From contig JBEIJN010000003.1 in the NCBI GenBank assembly GCA_040380225.1, positions 26,306-90,305 of the forward strand: a DNA stretch of 64,000 nt, written 5' to 3'. Shown in pieces: positions 2,953 through 49,398 of the stretch. Position numbers and translations under genes: made by a program. Numbering within the stretch: the stretch's first letter is position 1; each line of letters begins with the position of its first letter. This DNA comes from Verrucomicrobiia bacterium (lineage in GTDB: Bacteria; Verrucomicrobiota; Verrucomicrobiia; Chthoniobacterales; UBA6821). Under the pieces are notes generated by a model that worked only from the letters and a program-made list of their open reading frames with translations, searched no databases and was not told where the DNA came from.

Positions 2953-3067
2953 GGGGAAAATCGCTAAGGGGGAAAAATAGTCATTACTCATAATGACATG
3001 GAGGTCTCCGCTCAAGCTTCAAAAACTCCTTTCCGGAGTTGTGTTGTGAAAACGAAGAAGTAGATTA

Positions 3068-3170
3068 GGCACGTCAGGGGCTATGGATGAAAGACCGGTG
3101 AACCCCGCCAGGGCAGGAATGCAGCAACGGCAGCCAGCTCTCTCTTGCCGTAGTTCCCTGACACTCCTTT
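3068..3170 (+). ncRNA. ffs: Signal recognition particle RNA (small bacterial 4.5S type)
   Basis: Contains the domain IV signature CAGG-GCA-GGAA-UGC-AGCA: a GGAA tetraloop closed by 3 bp and flanked by the conserved CAGG/AGCA symmetric loop. The terminal helix pairs GUCAGGG (3073-3079) with CCCUGAC (3056-3062 of the line, i.e. 3156-3162). A T-run follows. Confidence 0.85.
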
Positions 3171-3285
3171 TTTAGGAACCAGTGTGTTGAGGCGTTCAGC
3201 CAAAGATAAGAGGGGCTACGGACCCATGGGTATTACCCCCTCCATTCTTGTTTCCGTGACACTCAAAAACGGCTAGAGAGGAGGG

Positions 3286-10383: not shown

Positions 10384-10424
10384 GGGAAAATTATGAAGGA
10401 TGAATTATGAATGATGAAGGGTTG
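10384..10424. repeat. Inverted-repeat arm (ATGAAGGATGAATTATGAATGATGAAGG) at the 3' flank of the four-helix-bundle cassette
   Basis: GATGAATTATGAATGATGAA (20 nt) recurs as a perfect reverse complement within 11046-11085. Confidence 0.85.
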
Positions 10425-11063
10425 AAGCCTTGGTTCTCTTTGAAATCGTCGTCAGGATGGCGATGAGCTCATCACATTCCCTGCTGAGTTCCTTGGTTTT
10501 CAGAAGCGGAAGAATGTCTGATTCAACCAGCAAATCCAACCAGTATGCGGTTTCATCGAGTTCTTTCAGGCAATCCCCGATCTTGGCAATGAACTCGTTT
10601 CTCGATCGGGATCGATTGGCTTCACGATAATTCGCTCCCACGGAAGTACCGGATCTCAGAACCTGTTTTCCCAGAGTTTGTGCCAGGGTATTTTTCGGAA
10701 GGGCGCTATAGAGCCTGATCACCCTAAGGAACCGCTGATTAAATCGCATAGAGGCCGTTGCGGGAAGAATGGGCCGCGGGCAAGGCGGCTTTGCGGGCGC
10801 ATCCCCGCAGTGGGCTGTAACCGCAAAGCCAACACAGCCCCCGGCCGGTTATCTCCGCAACCCGGAGGGCTGAAGCCATTTGTCGATTTTTCTGGCGTTG
10901 CTCGCTCGGGCGAGACCGCTGCGGGTATCGCCCAGCACTCGCGCCTTCAAAAATCAGCAAATGCTCTTCAGCGGCCTTCATGGGATTTAATCAGCGGTTC
11001 CCTAAGGGCGAATGTCTTCGTCCTAGCGGATAGGTCGGCGGCTGGTTTCTTTTCATCATTCAT
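10405..11063 (-). pseudogene. Four-helix-bundle protein gene (23S rRNA intervening-sequence protein / Avd-like, TIGR02436 type), interrupted by a 276-bp element
   Basis: The N-terminal piece (11063-11003) encodes MNDEKKPAADLSARTKTFAL. The C-terminal piece (10724-10405) encodes RVIRLYSALPKNTLAQTLGKQVLRSGTSVGANYREANRSRSRNEFIAKIGDCLKELDETAYWLDLL. Joining them after removing 278 nt gives a 126-aa in-frame product with the family pattern. Confidence 0.8.
10727..11002 (-). mobile_element. 276-bp non-autonomous TIR element (MITE-like), copy A, flanked by TA (10725-10726 and 11003-11004)
   Basis: About 95% identical by manual alignment (14 substitutions, no indels) to 43850-44125 in the opposite orientation. 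It has roughly 28-bp imperfect terminal inverted repeats (GGGAACCGCTGATTAAATCCCATGAAGG) and no credible ORF. Confidence 0.8.
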
Positions 11064-11085
11064 AATTCATCATTCATCCTTTCTC
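11046..11085. repeat. Inverted-repeat arm at the 5' flank of the four-helix-bundle cassette
   Basis: Reverse complement of the arm at 10384-10424. It contains the cassette's start codon. Confidence 0.85.
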
Positions 11086-19434: not shown

Positions 19435-19693
19435 TGCCTGGTCGGGGACGACCGGCAGATAATTGGGCTGTTGGGATCGGAAGTAGACGCTAGGGGGTTA
19501 GGCTCTAGGCTTCTAGGATCTGAAGAGAGACTTTCCCTCAATTTGTTAATCAGATTGCCTGGCGCCATCTTGGTGAACGCTCCGGATCTGTTGCCATGGT
19601 TCCATTGCACAATCCGGGGTAATCGAAAAAGGCCGATCGAGCCGTTCCTTCGTTGCCCCGGGGAGTGCGGTATGATACTCAATTCCTTTGGCA

Positions 19694-19765
19694 GACCCCG
19701 TAGTTCAACGGATAGAATAGGAGTTTCCTAAACTCTAGATGGTGGTTCGATTCCACCCGGGGTCA
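19694..19765 (+). tRNA. tRNA-Arg (anticodon CCT)
   Basis: Manual cloverleaf: acceptor GACCCCG/CGGGGTC, D arm GTTC..GAAT, anticodon stem GGAGT/ACTCT with loop TTCCTAA, T arm GGTGG-TTCGATT-CCACC, discriminator A. CCA is not encoded. Confidence 0.9.
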
Positions 19766-19769
19766 GTTT

Positions 19770-20231
19770 TTATGGTTCCGGGTCAGATTCCGGTTGAGCC
19801 GTCGTGCTCTTTGCAGTCGTGGTCTTTGCAGTCGTGGTCTTTGCAGTTGTCGCCTTTGCAGTTGAGGTCTTTGCAGTCGTGGCCGCTGTAGCCGCTGGCT
19901 TGGGTTCGGGCTTCAGGTTAATGGTCATGGTTTGGGCCTTTTGCTTGGCTTCCATCATCTTCATTCCCTTGGCGGAGAAGGCCCTTTCGTAGAGTTTCCT
20001 CAGGTCAACCTCGCTGATTCCGTAGACGTCACTTAGATTCAGGCTTGGGAGGTCGGTCTTGAGGGCTTCAAAATGTTCTTTGAACACCTCCTTCTGGGCC
20101 TCGACTTTTGCTTTCTTGTCATCTTCTTCTTTCTTCAGATCTGCGGCGGTTTTTACTTTGGTTGCCGCGTTCAGCGGGGAGGCAGTGATTGCAAGAAGGA
20201 GGGGGCAGATAATGAGGAGGATGTGTTTCAT
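19770..20231 (-). CDS. Secreted protein with a C-terminal (T/A)TAKT tandem repeat
   Basis: Start at MKHILLIICPLLLAITASPLNA (signal peptide). The C-terminus reads TAKTSTAKATTAKTTTAKTTTAKSTTA, encoded by 15-bp tandem repeats at about 19800-19880. Confidence 0.6.
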   Translation of the reverse strand: MKHILLIICPLLLAITASPLNAATKVKTAADLKKEEDDKKAKVEAQKEVFKEHFEALKTDLPSLNLSDVYGISEVDLRKLYERAFSAKGMKMMEAKQKAQTMTINLKPEPKPAATAATTAKTSTAKATTAKTTTAKTTTAKSTTAQPESDPEP

Positions 20232-39137: not shown

Positions 39138-39241
39138 GGGCAGAGGAAGGATTGAATTATGAAGGATGAAGGATGAAGGATGAAAAGGGAAGGCTTGGGA
39201 TTTTGGCTCAGGGTTGCCCACGCCGCTCTTCAGGTCGATTT

Positions 39242-43187: not shown

Positions 43188-43558
43188 CCCGGATTTTGTA
43201 TTTAGGGAACCGATGCGAAGAGTTAAAAGGGTTGGCTCCTCGCTGTTTCAATGGGGTGAACAAAGGAATCAGTGAAAAATCAGAAAACAGGAAAACAAGA
43301 GGTGATACCACCGAGGAAACAGTCGAGGCCCATAACCGAGCTTGCGTAGTCACTCATTCGACCAGCCTCAGCATGCCACAGCAATCGCATTCATGACCAC
43401 TCCAGCAAGTTCTTCCTGCTTTCCTGCTTTCCAGATTAAAAAACTCCCCGTCGGCTTTTAACCGTTTAAACAGCTCAACTTTTTAACCCGATCGCCATGC
43501 ACCATACAGGTGAACGCTTCAGATATGTTTTCATGGTTCCATTGCTAAAAAACCCGCT

Positions 43559-44412
43559 GTGAATCCCATGAAGCCGCTGGCACGTTCCTTCTTCAAGCGG
43601 GACGCGGTGCTCTGCGCCCGTGAGTTGATCGGATGCACGCTGGGTCTTGCGGGAACCTCCGGCGTCATTGTCGAGACCGAGGCCTATGCGGCCGAGGGTG
43701 ATCCCGCCTGCCATACCTGGAATCGGCAGGGAGCACGCGATTTCGTTTCCAGCAATGCCCCCGGAACCGCCTATGTCTACCTGAACTACGGGATGCATTG
43801 GCTCTTCAACCTGCTCGTGAAGGGAGGCGAGCGGGATGGTTTTGTCCCAGGGAACCGCTGATTAAATCCCATGAAGGACGCTGAATAGCATTTGCTGATT
43901 TTTGAAGGCGTGAGTGCTGGGCGATACCCGCAGCGGTCTCGCCCGAGCGAGCAACGCCACAAAAATCGACAAATGGCTTCAGCCCTCCGGGTTGCGGAGA
44001 TAACAGGCCGGGGGCTGTGTTGGCTTGGCGCTTACAGCCCACTGCGGGGATGCTCGCGCCAAGCCGCCTTGCCCGCCGCCCATTCTTTCCGCAACGGCCT
44101 CTATGCGATTTAATCAGCGATTCCCTAATCAGGGCCTTGGAGCCGCTCGGTGGAGTCGACCTGATGCAGGAGCGCAGGCGGCGCGGGAAGGTGGAGGAAC
44201 TCTGCAATGGTCCCGCCAAGCTCACCCAAGCGCTCGGGATCACTGGTGATCACCATGAAGTCGACCCGCTCTCGGCAAAGGGATGGGTCCTGACGGAACC
44301 CCGGTCAACGGTCGCCACGATCACCTCGACGCGGATCGGAATCTCCCAAGCTACCGACTATCCGTGGCGCTTCGTCATGAAGGGGAGTCGCTGCGTGAGC
44401 GTTCCTGTGTAG
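43559..44412 (+). pseudogene. DNA-3-methyladenine glycosylase (MPG/AAG family, PF02245) gene interrupted by a 276-bp element
   Basis: The N-terminal piece ends ...LLVKGGERDGFV (codon GTC at 43844-43846), then runs into the element and stops. The C-terminal piece resumes at 44125 with LIRALEPLGG...NGPAKLTQALGI...RIGIS...PWRF. Removing 278 nt rejoins GFV|LIRALEP in frame. Confidence 0.85.
43850..44125 (+). mobile_element. 276-bp non-autonomous TIR element (MITE-like), copy B, flanked by CA (43848-43849) and TA (44126-44127)
   Basis: TIRs are GGGAACCGCTGATTAAATCCCATGAAGG and, at the other end, the reverse complement of GGGAATCGCTGATTAAATCGCATAGAGG. The interior is GC-rich and hairpin-dense. It is the inverted homolog of 10727-11002. 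Confidence 0.8.
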
Positions 44413-44502: not shown

Positions 44503-44616
44503 TTACTTGCTTTTGCAAGGGGCGGGGTTCGTGCAGCACTGCTTGTGGCAGCATGCGCCGAGGGTAAGGGAAGCCACCGCGAGGGCGACGACCGCTGCGA
44601 TCTTGGTGATGGTCAT
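44503..44616 (-). CDS. Small Cys-rich lipoprotein (37 aa), below the ORF-track size cutoff
   Basis: Hand translation gives MTITKIAAVVALAVASLTLGACCHKQCCTNPAPCKSK. AGGAGG lies 8 nt upstream of the ATG, and there is a signal peptide plus a lipobox-like LGAC. A terminator lies downstream. Confidence 0.65.
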   Translation of the reverse strand: MTITKIAAVVALAVASLTLGACCHKQCCTNPAPCKSK

Positions 44617-44798
44617 GATATAGTTCGCCTCCTTTCTCAGCTGGTTGCTCTGAGTGAAAACATAACCCCCGATGCTGTCGGAACCAATGCGAAAGATCTA
44701 ACGAAGACGCTTAGGAAAAAGTGAAAAGTTGAAAGGTGGAAAAGTGGGAAAGGTCCGCGTTGATGGCCGAGTGCGTGAAGGGATAGGGAAAGAAAAAA

Positions 44799-44822
44799 GC
44801 CGGACCGAATGAACGGCCCGGC
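44799..44822. terminator. Bidirectional intrinsic terminator hairpin (paralog of 44428-44451)
   Basis: GCCGGACCG-AATGAA-CGGCCCGGC, flanked by AAAAAA and TTTTT. It lies downstream of the second small lipoprotein gene. Confidence 0.75.
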
Positions 44823-44874
44823 TTTTTAAAAGTATGAACCGTCGCTCATGCAGGGATGAGCAGACGAGTCCCCC

Positions 44875-44988
44875 TTACTTGCTCTTCACGCTGGTGGCGG
44901 GAGCGGGAGCCTGCTTGCTGGCGCAGGCACCGAGGGTGAGGGTTGCGGCCGCGAGGGCGACAACTGCTGCGATCTTGGTGATGGTCAT
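44875..44988 (-). CDS. Small lipoprotein (37 aa), paralog of 44503-44616
   Basis: Hand translation gives MTITKIAAVVALAAATLTLGACASKQAPAPATSVKSK. It has the same RBS context and signal peptide as its neighbour, but the mature part has diverged. Confidence 0.65.
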   Translation of the reverse strand: MTITKIAAVVALAAATLTLGACASKQAPAPATSVKSK

Positions 44989-45102
44989 GGAATATTTCGC
45001 CTCCTTTCTTTGCTGGTTGCGTTGTCGGGAAATTAAAGCCGACAGCCCCCGTCACAAAGAAAATTTCCTGATTTTTTTGCGAGGTGCCCGAAATTCCCAA
45101 AA

Positions 45103-45585
45103 TCAGGGCTTGATCTCGACGTGGGTTCCTTCGCGAACCCGGTCGAAGAGTTCGATCATGTCGTTGTTTCGAAGGCGGATGCATCCGTGGCTGGCTGGGG
45201 TTCCAATGAGGTGCTCCTGATTGGTTCCGTGGATGTAAATGTAGCGCTGACGGGTATTGGCGTTTTGCGGATCGAGTCCTTCAAGCCAGAGGATCCGAGT
45301 GAGCACGAGATCCTCTTCCCCTCCCTGATCCGCAACCTTTCCGGTCGCAATACGGCTTTGGAAGATCATCCCTGCCGGGGCGCCCTCGCCGATCTTCTCC
45401 GCTATCCTGAAGCGTCCCGTGGGTGTCCGGAAACTTCCCTCCTCGAATCCGAGTCCGAACCTCGATGTCGAGACGGGCCAGGTGGCCGTGACGACTTCTC
45501 CCTCGTTCATTTCCAAGACCTGACGGGCCACGTCGACTAGGAGGTGGCGTTGGTGGTGGCGCTGCGAGTTTGAAGGCTTTGACAT
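45103..45585 (-). CDS. L,D-transpeptidase (YkuD domain)
   Basis: Start at MSKPSNSQ. The C-terminal HGTNQEHLIGTPASHGCIRLRNNDMIELF carries the YkuD catalytic His/Cys motif. Confidence 0.8.
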   Translation of the reverse strand: MSKPSNSQRHHQRHLLVDVARQVLEMNEGEVVTATWPVSTSRFGLGFEEGSFRTPTGRFRIAEKIGEGAPAGMIFQSRIATGKVADQGGEEDLVLTRILWLEGLDPQNANTRQRYIYIHGTNQEHLIGTPASHGCIRLRNNDMIELFDRVREGTHVEIKP

Positions 45586-45646
45586 GGGATTACTGTTCTG
45601 GATGCTTGCAGAGAGCGGCCTGCGAAGGCAATTTTTACAGTTCATC

Positions 45647-46672
45647 ATGAGTAACAAAGCCACTGAATCCCGTTCCTCCTCCGCCAAGCACCTTGCCATT
45701 GTCGGTGCAACCGGTGCCGTCGGAATCGAGATGCTCCGGGTTCTGGAGCGCAGGAATTTCCCCGTCGCCTCCCTCCGTCTCCTTGCATCACCCCGTTCAG
45801 CGGGGAAGAAACTCCTCTTCCGCGGCGAGGAACTCACCGTAGAACCGCTGACCGAGAAGAGCTTCGAGGGGATCGAAATCGCCCTCTTCAGCGCCGGCGG
45901 GGGGATCTCCAAGGAATACGCACCTCACGCCGTGAAGGCTGGAGCCATTGTTGTCGATAACTCCTCCGCCTTCCGGATGGATCCGAAGGTTCCGCTGGTC
46001 GTACCCGAGATCAATGCCGCCGCCGCCGCCTCGCATTCCGGCATCCTTGCCAATCCCAACTGCACCACCGCGATCACGCTCATGGCGATCCACCCGCTTC
46101 ATCGGGTCTTCGGCCTCAAGCGGATTATCGCCTCAAGCTATCAGGCCGTCTCCGGCACCGGTGCGATGGCCATCGAGGAGTTGCGAAAGCAGGTCGAGGC
46201 TATCGCTTCGGAGAAGCCGGTGACCCGTGAGGTTTATCCGCATCAGATCGCCTTCAATGTACTCCCGCATGTCGATTCCTTCCTCGAGGACGGCTACACA
46301 CGCGAGGAGATGAAGATGCAGAACGAGGGGCGCCGCATCCTTGACCTTCCATCGCTCACCGCCTCGGTCACCTGTGTCCGTGTTCCGGTTTATCGTGCCC
46401 ACTCGGTCGCGGTGACCGCGGAGTTCGAGAAACCCGTCTCCCTCGAAAAAGCTCGCGAAGCCATCAATGCCGCTCCCGGCATCCGTCTCCATGACGATCC
46501 TGTCAATGCCGTCTATCCGATGCCCATCGAGTGCAGCGGCGAGGATGACTGCCGGATTGGACGCCTCCGCCTCGACTGCGCCCTGCCGAATGCTCTCACG
46601 TTTTGGGTCTGCGGCGACCAGCTCCTCAAGGGGGCTGCACTGAACGCCGTCCAGATCGCCGAGCTTTTGTAA
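45647..46672 (+). CDS. asd: Aspartate-semialdehyde dehydrogenase
   Basis: Start at MSNKATES. Contains AIVGATGAVG, the NPNCTT active-site Cys, and a VPVYRAHS region. Confidence 0.9.
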   Translation: MSNKATESRSSSAKHLAIVGATGAVGIEMLRVLERRNFPVASLRLLASPRSAGKKLLFRGEELTVEPLTEKSFEGIEIALFSAGGGISKEYAPHAVKAGAIVVDNSSAFRMDPKVPLVVPEINAAAAASHSGILANPNCTTAITLMAIHPLHRVFGLKRIIASSYQAVSGTGAMAIEELRKQVEAIASEKPVTREVYPHQIAFNVLPHVDSFLEDGYTREEMKMQNEGRRILDLPSLTASVTCVRVPVYRAHSVAVTAEFEKPVSLEKAREAINAAPGIRLHDDPVNAVYPMPIECSGEDDCRIGRLRLDCALPNALTFWVCGDQLLKGAALNAVQIAELL

Positions 46673-46702
46673 CTTTTCAACACTTTCACGACCACCTGAA
46701 CC

Positions 46703-47035
46703 ATGCCGACCTACGAATACGAGTGCAGCAAGTGCAAGAAGACCTTCGAGGCCTTCCAGTCGATGAAGGATGAGGCCTACAAGACGTGCCCCAAGGAGAA
46801 GTGCTGCATGAAGACCTGGGGAAAGGGTAAGGTGAAGCGCCTCCTCGGTGCAGGTGCGGGGCTGATCTTCAAAGGTTCCGGATTTTACATCACCGATTAC
46901 AGAAGCGAGGGTTACAAGAGCGCTGCCAAGAGTGACACCAGTTCCTCATCGGCCACTCCTGCTCCGGCAAAAGGTGATACCGCCAAGACCGCTCCGTCAG
47001 ACTCCAAGAAAAAGTCATCCAAGAAGGACACATGA
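46703..47035 (+). CDS. FmdB-family zinc-ribbon regulatory protein (CxxC_CxxC_SSSS)
   Basis: MPTYEYECSKCKKTFE...CPKEKC, followed by GSGFYITDYR and a Ser/Lys-rich tail. Confidence 0.75.
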   Translation: MPTYEYECSKCKKTFEAFQSMKDEAYKTCPKEKCCMKTWGKGKVKRLLGAGAGLIFKGSGFYITDYRSEGYKSAAKSDTSSSSATPAPAKGDTAKTAPSDSKKKSSKKDT

Positions 47036-47778
47036 GCGATCGCACCTGCTCCTCCTGTGGCGCTGTCAATACGGATGCGGTTGTTTACTGCTCCCAGTGC
47101 GGTGCCCTGCTGCAGGGTGTGCAGTCAGCAGCAGGGGATCCTCCTCCTTCCTCCACCGTGGCCGTGGCGAAGCGCCGTAGCCAACGGATTGAAGCCGATC
47201 GTCCAGCCGCTCCAACGGCCCTCTCCAGACTGAAGGGACTCTTCCTCTACGCCCTCTCGGTTGCGGTCGGTGTCGTCATCGTGCTAGCCCTGATGCAGCC
47301 GAAGAATGTTCCACCGCGGACTCAAACGCTTCCCAATGCCAAGCCCCTTACTCAGAAGATCATCTCGTCGGCCCGTTTCTCACCGGCGGTGCTCTCCCAG
47401 CAGCTCATCAACTCATGCCTGGATCAACAGGCACCGCTGACCTGGGATTCTCCGGTAAAGCTCGTTCCGATGCCGGTCTGGGAGTCTTCCTGTGTCGAAC
47501 TCTCCCCGGGCAAGGTCACGCTCTTTGCCAAGATCAGTCTGCTTGGCCGTCCCATCCATTTCTCCGAGACCTCCTATCCGGAAGGTAGGGCGGGGAACTG
47601 GGCACTTGTTCCAGAGGCTGCCACGATCGGCCTTCTTGACCTCCCTGTCTCGCTCATTCCCATTGTCACCCCGCTGCTCAGTGCCGGGGTGGCCCCCTTC
47701 TCCACGGAACTTGCATCCCTTGCCGCCGCACAGACACTGACGATCCGCTCCGGATTCGTCGAGTTCACCACACGTTGA
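47032..47778 (+). CDS. Zinc-ribbon plus single-TM protein, function unknown
   Basis: N-terminal CSSCGAVN...YCSQCGALL zinc ribbon and one TM segment (LFLYALSVAVGVVIVLALM). A 4-nt overlap with the upstream gene suggests an operon. Confidence 0.55.
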   Translation: MSDRTCSSCGAVNTDAVVYCSQCGALLQGVQSAAGDPPPSSTVAVAKRRSQRIEADRPAAPTALSRLKGLFLYALSVAVGVVIVLALMQPKNVPPRTQTLPNAKPLTQKIISSARFSPAVLSQQLINSCLDQQAPLTWDSPVKLVPMPVWESSCVELSPGKVTLFAKISLLGRPIHFSETSYPEGRAGNWALVPEAATIGLLDLPVSLIPIVTPLLSAGVAPFSTELASLAAAQTLTIRSGFVEFTTR

Positions 47779-47790
47779 GGTTTTGACCAA

Positions 47791-49044
47791 GTGAAGCGGC
47801 ACCAGCTTCCCCTGTTTCCGCTGATCCTGTTTCTCACCGGATGGGGAACCATGGATGCTCTTTCCAAGGGCCCTGCAATCACGGGAGAGGGGTGCTTCGC
47901 ATGGAGCACAGTCAAGGGATGCCAAAGCACGCCCGATTTCGGAAGGATGCTCGATACCGGGGGAAAGGAGTTTCTGGTTCGAACCGGATTTTCGCAACAT
48001 GCCCATCCTCCCGTGGTGGTCACCCTTCATCCGCGCACAGAAATTGCCGCTGCTCTACCCTTCCTGAAAGTGGATGCCCTGGAGGGGGGGATTCCCCGGA
48101 TCAGCGTCGATCTCCGGGAGGGAGAGATCCGAGGGGAGGGGCAAAAGCTCCTCATGGCCGCACTGTTGCTCCGGGAATATTATGACGGACATGCACCGGT
48201 TCCCGGTTCCCGCGTTCCCCAACATCCAGCCTGGGTGACACGTGGCTTGGCCTCTCTCTGTTTTCCGGCCGAGGAACCGTTTAGAATTCCATCTTCCTAC
48301 CTCAAGGTTAAGGGGGGGAACCCTCCGACTCTCGAGGACTTCCTGATCCAGCGTCCACCCGAGCGCTCCGACCCGACAATTTCGGATCTCTACGATGCTT
48401 CGGCCGCCTCTCTCCTGAAGTCCGGACTTTCAACTTCCGCCGGTCAGGCCGCCTTCCGGGAATGGGTAGGTCATGATGATCAGAAGCAAGCAAACCAAGT
48501 TCCCTCAAGATGGGTGGGCGGATGGGAGATGCGTCCCGTCGAGCGCCGGTGGCTCCTCTTGATGGCAGGCAGTTCATCCGACAGTGATGGTGGAATCAGG
48601 ATCCAGGGAGCAGCCGATTCCCTGAAAGCCTATGATTCCGTGATGACCGGGGGAATTCCGGAGGGTGCATCGATTCATTCTCTAGCTCAGGACAAAAAAG
48701 GCGGTGCCTATACCCTTGGCAAGCTTACAGAGCGCCTGACAGCGATTCACCTCCGTGCCAATCCCCTCGTTCTGCCTCTGATGGATCAGACACTCCTCCT
48801 CGTTGGGAAGGCCCCGAAACTTCCGGTGAAGAAAATCGAAGCGGAGGAAAAGCGTTTGGCGGAACTGCGCGAGGAAACAGTGAAACAGTCCCGTGCGATC
48901 GACGAGTATCTCGACTGGTATGAAGCCGCGAAGCTCCCTGTCCGAAGCGGCACCTTCGACAAACTTCTTCAGAACCAGGAGAGTGTGATCAAAAAAGGCC
49001 CCGTTGGCCGCTACCTCGACGCCGTGGAGGCGAGGGGATGGTAG
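47791..49044 (+). CDS. Hypothetical protein
   Basis: 417-aa ORF (GTG start on the track) following the zinc-ribbon gene. No recognisable motifs. Confidence 0.5.
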   Translation: MKRHQLPLFPLILFLTGWGTMDALSKGPAITGEGCFAWSTVKGCQSTPDFGRMLDTGGKEFLVRTGFSQHAHPPVVVTLHPRTEIAAALPFLKVDALEGGIPRISVDLREGEIRGEGQKLLMAALLLREYYDGHAPVPGSRVPQHPAWVTRGLASLCFPAEEPFRIPSSYLKVKGGNPPTLEDFLIQRPPERSDPTISDLYDASAASLLKSGLSTSAGQAAFREWVGHDDQKQANQVPSRWVGGWEMRPVERRWLLLMAGSSSDSDGGIRIQGAADSLKAYDSVMTGGIPEGASIHSLAQDKKGGAYTLGKLTERLTAIHLRANPLVLPLMDQTLLLVGKAPKLPVKKIEAEEKRLAELREETVKQSRAIDEYLDWYEAAKLPVRSGTFDKLLQNQESVIKKGPVGRYLDAVEARGW

Positions 49045-49398
49045 AGGGGAGAGGCGGGGGGAAATGAAAAATGAAGAATGAAGAATAAAAAATTAACCAG
49101 TAGAAGGTGGAAAACTGGGAAGGTGAACCAAGCGTCTGGGGTGGCGCGCGAAAGACTGAAAGACAAAAGCATCAATCAGAGGTCACTGTTAAGAGGGGCA
49201 CATTTTGCAGTTCCATCCCTGCCCGCGCTTGCGTGATCCCTTACACGGATTATCCTATCGGGATGTTCTTTCTGACGCGGCGCGAGCAGATGGTGGTGAT
49301 CTTCATCCTCACCTCCCTGTTCCTCGGTGCGGGTATCCGCCATTACCGCCTCGAGAGGATGCTTCCCTCCCAATTCCACCCCTCGCACTGAGTTTTTC

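Follow-up and report, generated by a model that had tools for sequence, protein, structure and literature searches.

What might explain why two unrelated genes in one stretch of Verrucomicrobiia DNA are each split by the same insert, and why removal of exactly 278 nt rebuilds an open reading frame in both? The stretch analyzed here, which we call the window, is 64,000 nucleotides of contig JBEIJN010000003.1 (assembly GCA_040380225.1). An initial annotation, made from the letters alone, had recognized a mobile element inserted independently into two unrelated genes, and had taken the two restorable frames as more than would be expected of old, decaying pseudogenes. Terminal inverted repeats, target duplications and empty sites in relatives support the mobile element, and the two host genes are a four-helix-bundle gene and a DNA-3-methyladenine glycosylase gene. 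The surprise at the frames is not warranted: any target-duplicating element leaves such a frame, and the insertions are young. The element, 274 bp long, is very probably a transposase-less derivative of an IS5-family (IS5-group) insertion sequence, that is, an IS5-type MITE. A frame remains restorable because a recent cut-and-paste insertion duplicates its target, and what is seen here is ordinary transposon biology with insertional inactivation, not a new kind of gene interruption. The MITE as such opens no new mechanistic question.

Anatomy and boundaries of the element

Four copies of the 18-mer GGAACCGCTGATTAAATC are present in the 64-kb window (0.02 matches are expected by chance), forming two convergent pairs, at 10728/11001 and 43851/44124. 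The first pair bounds copy A (10728..11001, plus strand), which is 274 bp long and has no transposase ORF. Its left terminal inverted repeat (10728..10749, plus strand) pairs with the right one (10980..11001, minus strand) perfectly over 18 bp, and over approximately 22 bp with one mismatch. The second pair bounds copy B (43851..44124, minus strand), also 274 bp, inverted relative to copy A and 95% identical to it. Across 279 nt the two are 95% complementary, which, together with the paired 18-mers, bears out the earlier view of a second, inverted copy. An inversion between the two inverted copies is excluded, because the flanks of each copy rebuild one gene.

The element had first been described as 276 bp flanked by a duplicated TA, a parse that misplaces each end by one base. 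The ends are set at GGAACC...GGTTCC by 25 further copies and by empty sites, giving 274 bp in the window and a 4-bp duplication, CTAA. At copy A the duplication lies at 10724..10727 on the left and 11002..11005 on the right, and the empty site in the related contigs L128 and L129 has it in single copy (TTAG on the gene strand). An 8-bp identity of the flanks had also been reported, and CCCTAAGG is indeed found at both junctions (10722-10729 and 11000-11007). It is made up of 2 bp of flank, the 4-bp duplication and the terminal GG or CC of the element; at either junction, one of its outer dinucleotides, CC or GG, belongs to the flank and the other to the end of the element. For copy B a clean duplication can no longer be claimed. 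Its right repeat (44125..44128) is CTAA, its degenerate left repeat (43847..43850) is CCAG, and the empty site in the related contigs L118-L122 reads gtc-CTAA-tc. CCAG differs from CTAA by two transitions, and two substitutions in 4 bp exceed the expectation from the roughly 7% local divergence. An IS630/Tc1-type MITE, with its TA duplication, was considered and rejected: 4-bp repeats that include TTAA, CTAG and CTTG sites do not fit TA.

The two interrupted genes

Copy A interrupts a minus-strand gene, as had been read from the sequence. The ORF that starts at 11063 (MNDEKKPAADLSARTKTFAL) enters the element, and the frame RVIRLYSALPK... resumes at about 10724. By ORF reading and profile matches, the 5' fragment (11002..11063, minus strand) encodes M1-L20 plus 2 nt, and the 3' fragment (10405..10727, minus strand) encodes R21-S126 and the stop codon. 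Deletion of 278 nt produces an ORF of 126 aa (381 nt with the stop), and the family pattern initially noticed in it is confirmed by matches to PF05635 (70.6 bits over residues 14-112) and TIGR02436 (88.6 bits over residues 13-118), both of which run without a break through the junction at residue 20/21. Once restored, the host gene is a member of the TIGR02436/PF05635 four-helix-bundle (23S rRNA IVS) family. Intact orthologues are 98% (P0121) and 94% (P0122) identical, and the proposed check against intact paralogs came out in favor of a split gene, the two pieces being contiguous homologues of intact members.

Copy B divides a plus-strand DNA-3-methyladenine glycosylase gene into a 5' fragment of codons 1-93 (43568..43846), recognized by ORF reading and profile matches, and a 3' fragment of codons 94-188 with the stop codon (44125..44412). 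Removing 278 nt yields a 188-aa glycosylase (PF02245, 174.9 bits), whose motif GFVLIRAL at the restored junction is invariant among homologues. For annotation, both the four-helix-bundle and the 3-methyladenine glycosylase genes are transposon-disrupted pseudogenes, and the ORFs of 31, 114 and about 97 aa given by gene callers are fragments. The situation differs from that of the Rickettsia palindromic elements (RPE), palindromic repeats that lie in frame within protein-coding genes and are translated with the host protein, whereas the 278 nt here shift the frame and bring in stops, and the genes are broken.

The four-helix-bundle gene is bracketed by a 31-nt inverted repeat of its own (10388-10418 and 11052-11082, 90% complementary) that consists of TTCATNN heptamers. 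The arms encode the N terminus MNDE and the C terminus LHHS-stop, which are common to nearly all of the 120 best homologues, and the number of heptamers varies among the orthologues. A similar run occurs at 39152-39184, upstream of gatC. Judging from the heptamer inverted repeat, the gene could be part of an IVS-like or mobile cassette. Elsewhere in the window there are repeats of other kinds. A 72-nt direct repeat, 78% identical and without Rfam match, is present at 19537-19608, upstream of tRNA-Arg(CCT) (19694-19765), and at 43474-43545, just upstream of the split glycosylase gene; directly after the tRNA-Arg gene, a 15-bp unit (GCAGTCGTGGTCTTT) is repeated six times head-to-tail (19783-19902). 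Downstream of copy B, a 110-nt repeat occurs at 44539-44648 and 44911-45020 (84% identical, 372 bp apart). It appears single-copy in L118, which suggests a local tandem duplication.

Structure and coding content of the interior

The element is predicted to fold into a terminal stem and two long hairpins (-161.7 kcal/mol, z = -9.5). Both hairpins are long imperfect palindromes, at 10757..10861 and 10869..10972 of copy A (plus strand). When 12 copies are aligned, 98.3% of the 1128 cells pair, and changes on both sides are seen at 6 pairs, compared with 0-2 in slid controls. These changes cluster in the apical stem of hairpin 1 (columns 58-70 with 128-140), where G-C, C-G and U-A alternate; hairpin 2 is delimited by the fold and by pairing in the alignment. 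A nested-palindrome interior of this kind is typical of MITEs, and it is kept by compensatory changes. The ORFs inside the element are translations of the palindromes. A sigma-70 promoter scan of the element gave 0 sites, a terminator scan gave one weak site that was not above shuffles, and Rfam gave no match at the gathering score and only noise at E <= 1.

The strong secondary structure, taken with the clean 278-nt arithmetic at two loci, is the sole point in favor of an intervening sequence that is removed at the RNA or protein level, in the manner of an intron, an intein or a translational bypass, with full-length products still being made. We regard this as barely conceivable. Terminal inverted repeats with a 4-bp target duplication mark the insert as a DNA transposon, and no Rfam intron or other family was matched even at E <= 1. 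The insert is not a multiple of three and has stops in the gene frame (REPLIKSHEGR*), copies occur in either orientation relative to the host gene, and most members of the family lie between genes, as the distribution of the IS5-type MITE across genomes makes clear.

Family members and target sites

The family comprises 27 copies in at least 10 assemblies. Other Verrucomicrobiota MAGs, and metagenomes, contain 274-bp copies that match copy A at 87-97% identity. Nineteen copies from Verrucomicrobiota MAGs are flanked by 4-bp repeats of CTAA, CTAG, TTAA, TTAG and, once, CTTG, and six more on metagenome contigs have the same boundaries and 4-bp flanks. In public genomes, perfect 4-bp flanking repeats accompany 52 of 74 inverted-repeat pairs (0/74 in a shifted control), and 44 of these 52 perfect duplications are YTAR (CTAA, CTAG, TTAA or TTAG). 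A logo of the 52 sites displays a weak preference for C/G before YTAR and for G after it. From the target consensus initially suggested, CC-TA-AGG, the outer bases survive as a weak C-YTAR-G preference, while the duplicated unit is the 4-bp YTAR and not TA. An extended target site was also considered: the target in L111, CACCCTAA-A-GGCGA, matches that of copy A at 13 of 14 positions, which hinted at a long target or at the remnant of a homologous gene. Both ideas were set aside, since the flanks are otherwise unrelated and the logo is weak; we take the match as mostly coincidence on top of the weak preference.

Three of the 27 copies are inside Pfam-recognizable genes, namely the four-helix-bundle gene, the glycosylase gene and a DUF3368 gene in L041, and 24 are intergenic; two more copies lie in 5' leaders. 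The question of how many copies sit within ORFs, which the initial annotation had posed, is thus answered largely against a preference for genes, and the flanks of the copies are not degraded. That both copies in the window are genic (2/2, versus roughly 1 in 25 elsewhere) counts against the explanation we favor. In L041 the family member splits the DUF3368 (PIN-like) gene at 1568-1841. A 601-bp composite variant is located within the 5' leader of a dodecin gene (L083, 5375-5975), and a 355-bp variant is upstream of a gene that reads as anti-sigma-antagonist-like from its sequence (L135, 340-694). Length variants of 54 bp (ends only), 145, 210-230, 296-307 and 355-601 bp reveal ends that stay constant over about 30 bp and a modular interior between them.

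The 18-19-bp end GGAACCGCTGATTAAATC(G) also delimits MITEs of 48-207 bp with YTAR 4-bp duplications, whose interiors are unrelated and host-like, in MAGs of Oscillospiraceae, Ruminiclostridium, Agathobacter, Treponema and Acidobacteriaceae (for example, L012 102-190, L055 939-1046, L010 6195-6355, L051 2627-2764 and L078 398-580). The Oscillospiraceae MAG RGIG4694 alone has dozens of copies with GGAACCGCTGATTAAATC(G) ends. About 17 chance matches to an 18-mer are expected in 596 Gb, and lone unpaired matches in other phyla were given no weight. An end common to MITEs of Firmicutes, Spirochaetes, Acidobacteria and Verrucomicrobiota would point to one very widespread IS5 lineage that conserves its ends and has given rise to MITEs in different phyla, a possibility that we consider unlikely. 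A full-text literature search with the inverted-repeat sequence returned no paper. We describe here an undescribed MITE family of freshwater Verrucomicrobiota whose IS5-type footprints are clean, whose interior is built of modular hairpins and whose end sequence recurs in MITEs of several phyla; it could help to identify the cognate IS5-group transposase and to follow recent transposition in uncultured lineages.

Relationship to IS5 and the missing partner

A YTAR target with a 4-bp duplication is documented for IS5 (PMC5009759). The ends of the element point to the same group. On the Cupriavidus pauculus plasmid NZ_CP082865.1, a 1208-bp IS with an annotated IS5-family transposase has a left inverted repeat (IRL GGAAACGCTGATTAAATC) that is 17/18 identical to the MITE repeat, and has CTAG on both sides. 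The ends of an IS on Burkholderia vietnamiensis pBVIE04 match at 14/18 and 15/18, with a CTAG duplication; its transposase matches NF033581, 'IS5 family transposase', at 359 bits, and a solo 17/18 end is found 80 bp from it. IS5 of E. coli and the IS5-group ISs resemble the present element in their ends, GGAA(N)C(G/A)CTGAT, and in the 4-bp YTAR duplication (CTAG or CTAA). They differ in what lies between: the Cupriavidus and Burkholderia ISs are 1.2 kb long, encode a DDE transposase of roughly 328 aa and have interiors without similarity to the MITE, whereas the element in Verrucomicrobiota is 274 bp, non-coding, GC-rich and palindromic. It is a MITE by its 274-bp length with terminal inverted repeats, its lack of a transposase, its fixed 4-bp duplication, and its dispersed copies and empty sites, and it belongs with the IS5 group by the 4-bp YTAR duplication and by ends that match those of ISs encoding an IS5-family DDE transposase.

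MITEs derived from IS5-family elements are already known, among them BrickBuilt, MITE239 and related elements in Porphyromonas gingivalis and ATR in Neisseria meningitidis (PMC4596501). Like the family described here, these are short, non-autonomous and multicopy, with a variable interior, and have only their terminal inverted repeats in common with IS5-family ISs. The BrickBuilt group differs in its inverted repeat (GAGACCTTTGCA...), and BrickBuilt contains a minisatellite and has irregular duplications, whereas in the family described here the YTAR duplications are clean and the interior forms two hairpins. Correia/NEMIS in Neisseria, RUP in Streptococcus pneumoniae and ERIC are likewise hairpin MITEs of 100-300 bp with inverted repeats; they are numerous, and strains differ in which copies are present. 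The duplication made by Correia and RUP is TA, as in IS630/Tc1-like elements, whereas the present element duplicates 4 bp.

We detected no autonomous IS with exactly these ends, whether in the window, among 116 genome loci and 8 metagenome loci, or on viral contigs. A tblastn search with an IS5 transposase found no homologue in the window or in the 116 related loci. When ORFs within 1.8 kb inside every inverted-repeat match were clustered, only translations of the MITE recurred; a scan of metagenomes with the 29-nt end gave 8 loci, all of them MITEs of 54-556 bp, and a scan of viral contigs for the end gave 0 matches. Two candidates were rejected. An apparent 1159-bp IS in L097 (486-1644) is really two MITEs around an unrelated gene, and L016, considered as an autonomous parent, has a solo 44-nt end only. 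MAGs usually lose IS copies at contig breaks. As no autonomous IS was found, we infer the partner transposase from the 17/18 identity of the ends to proteobacterial IS5 elements.

By analogy with the family, the 18-22-bp terminal inverted repeats would be recognized by a DDE transposase that an autonomous IS with identical ends provides in trans, and this enzyme would excise the element and insert it at a YTAR tetranucleotide. The 4 bp would then be duplicated through staggered cleavage followed by gap repair; of this mechanism the footprint alone is seen here. Copy A landed in a CTAA at codons 20-21 of the small accessory four-helix-bundle gene and copy B in a CTAA at codons 94-95 of the 3-methyladenine glycosylase gene, and each gene is interrupted by the frame-shifting 278 nt.

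Empty and occupied sites in related genomes

Sites without the element are found for both copies. For copy B, five syntenic contigs (L118-L122, approximately 93% identical) have an intact 188-aa glycosylase gene (P0001) and a single CTAA. At the copy A locus, uninterrupted genes of 126-127 aa occur in L132 and in L123-L125, which are 95.7% identical to the window and have the same gene order (DEAD helicase, HI0933-like, four-helix-bundle, CxxCxxCC, RlmN). The exact empty site is found in L128-L131, which read TTCGCCCTTAGGGTG, the window minus 278 nt. Copy A is thus absent from syntenic L123-L125 and L128-L132, and the relatives with empty sites are 93-96% identical to the window. The empty L128 allele (3001-3264; also L129-L131) has a +1 frameshift of its own (GCATAC-A-TGG) that leaves an 87-aa product and is present in four independent assemblies, and we conclude from this lesion in an uninterrupted allele that the four-helix-bundle gene is dispensable.

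The copy A site is also occupied in MAG GCA_041164985.1 (L126), with a MITE that is 97.1% identical. Copy A and the L126 MITE have in common unique variants, a T-A pair at alignment columns 66/132 and a C at column 200, which indicates one insertion event. A further candidate, the 1409-bp JGI contig L127, has a 307-bp variant at the four-helix-bundle site joined to sequence of window positions ~61.2-61.5 kb, which in the window lies about 50 kb from that site, and it was set aside as probably a chimeric assembly. In their flanks, the window, L126 and L128 are all equally far apart (4.2-4.7%), and all three possible SNP partitions among them are present, at 38, 47 and 49 sites; such equal partitions signify a recombining population. 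Between the window and L126 the MITE has diverged by 2.9%, far below the flanking dS of 0.16-0.20, from which it follows that the insertion is younger than the surrounding alleles. We attribute the low MITE divergence to the youth of the insertion, although a constrained element would diverge as little. Most substitutions in the flanks are older than the insertion. In our reading both insertions are recent compared with the divergence of the population, and they segregate as presence/absence polymorphisms in a freshwater Verrucomicrobiota lineage that recombines; it is because the insertions are young that the split reading frames are still intact.

Could the element nevertheless be more than junk, either as a reversible switch for accessory genes or as the source of an outward start codon that gives a truncated functional four-helix-bundle protein? 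An interior conserved well below the neutral rate, pairing kept by compensatory changes, and 4-bp direct repeats can be cited for such a role, which we consider unlikely overall. In a reversible switch, the hairpin and the 4-bp direct repeats would allow frequent precise excision (phase variation), and this would keep the split frames intact. Both split frames are without secondary lesions, the near-perfect hairpin fold brings the two CTAA repeats together, a precise empty site equal to the window minus 278 nt exists in L128/L129, and occupied and empty alleles are interleaved. There is precedent within the family in ISXo1, an IS5-family element with a YTAR 4-bp target, for which precise excision restoring the wild type has been reported in Xanthomonas oryzae (bioRxiv 10.1101/2023.04.27.538605). 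A lineage that was never hit would, however, show an empty site just as well, and recombination explains the interleaving. At copy B the left repeat has become CCAG, and precise excision by slippage is no longer possible there, while the frameshift in the empty L128 allele argues for a gene that is dispensable and not toggled. Phase variation is therefore very improbable as an account of this locus.

The second possibility is that the MITE end was exapted, providing a start codon, and perhaps regulation, for a functional 114-aa protein (MRFNQRFL followed by R21-S126), with the insertion tolerated or selected. The predicted chimeric ORF (10405..10749, minus strand) begins with an ATG that lies 22 nt into the MITE end and shares the frame of the 3' fragment, and it retains nearly the whole PF05635 domain; gene callers label it a four-helix-bundle protein, and the same 114-aa ORF has been called in another MAG as P0131, whose precomputed PF05635 match agrees. 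An outward-reading ATG is present at both MITE ends. Moreover, in the 3' gene fragment the two occupied alleles, the window and L126, differ with dN = 0.013 and dS = 0.158, values like those of intact neighbors. The dN/dS of 0.08 for the two interrupted alleles first hinted at selection on the split gene, a view rejected as the main reading on the grounds of the recombining population and the L128 frameshift: polymorphism that predates the insertion in such a population accounts for the low ratio, and a relative has inactivated the same gene. Nor does the sigma-70 scan provide the element with a promoter, and reading the sequence by eye shows no evident Shine-Dalgarno motif ahead of the ATG. 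An in-frame start has a chance of one in three, and in copy B this ATG falls out of frame. A functional truncated protein is, on this evidence, very improbable, and insertional inactivation by an IS5-type MITE is the reading that we prefer for both genes.

In L136, a relative 90% identical to the window, MITE ends at 3275 and 7627 flank a 4.3-kb segment that is syntenic with window positions 44793-49064. The corresponding positions are empty in the window, and the two ends therefore represent further insertion polymorphisms near copy B.
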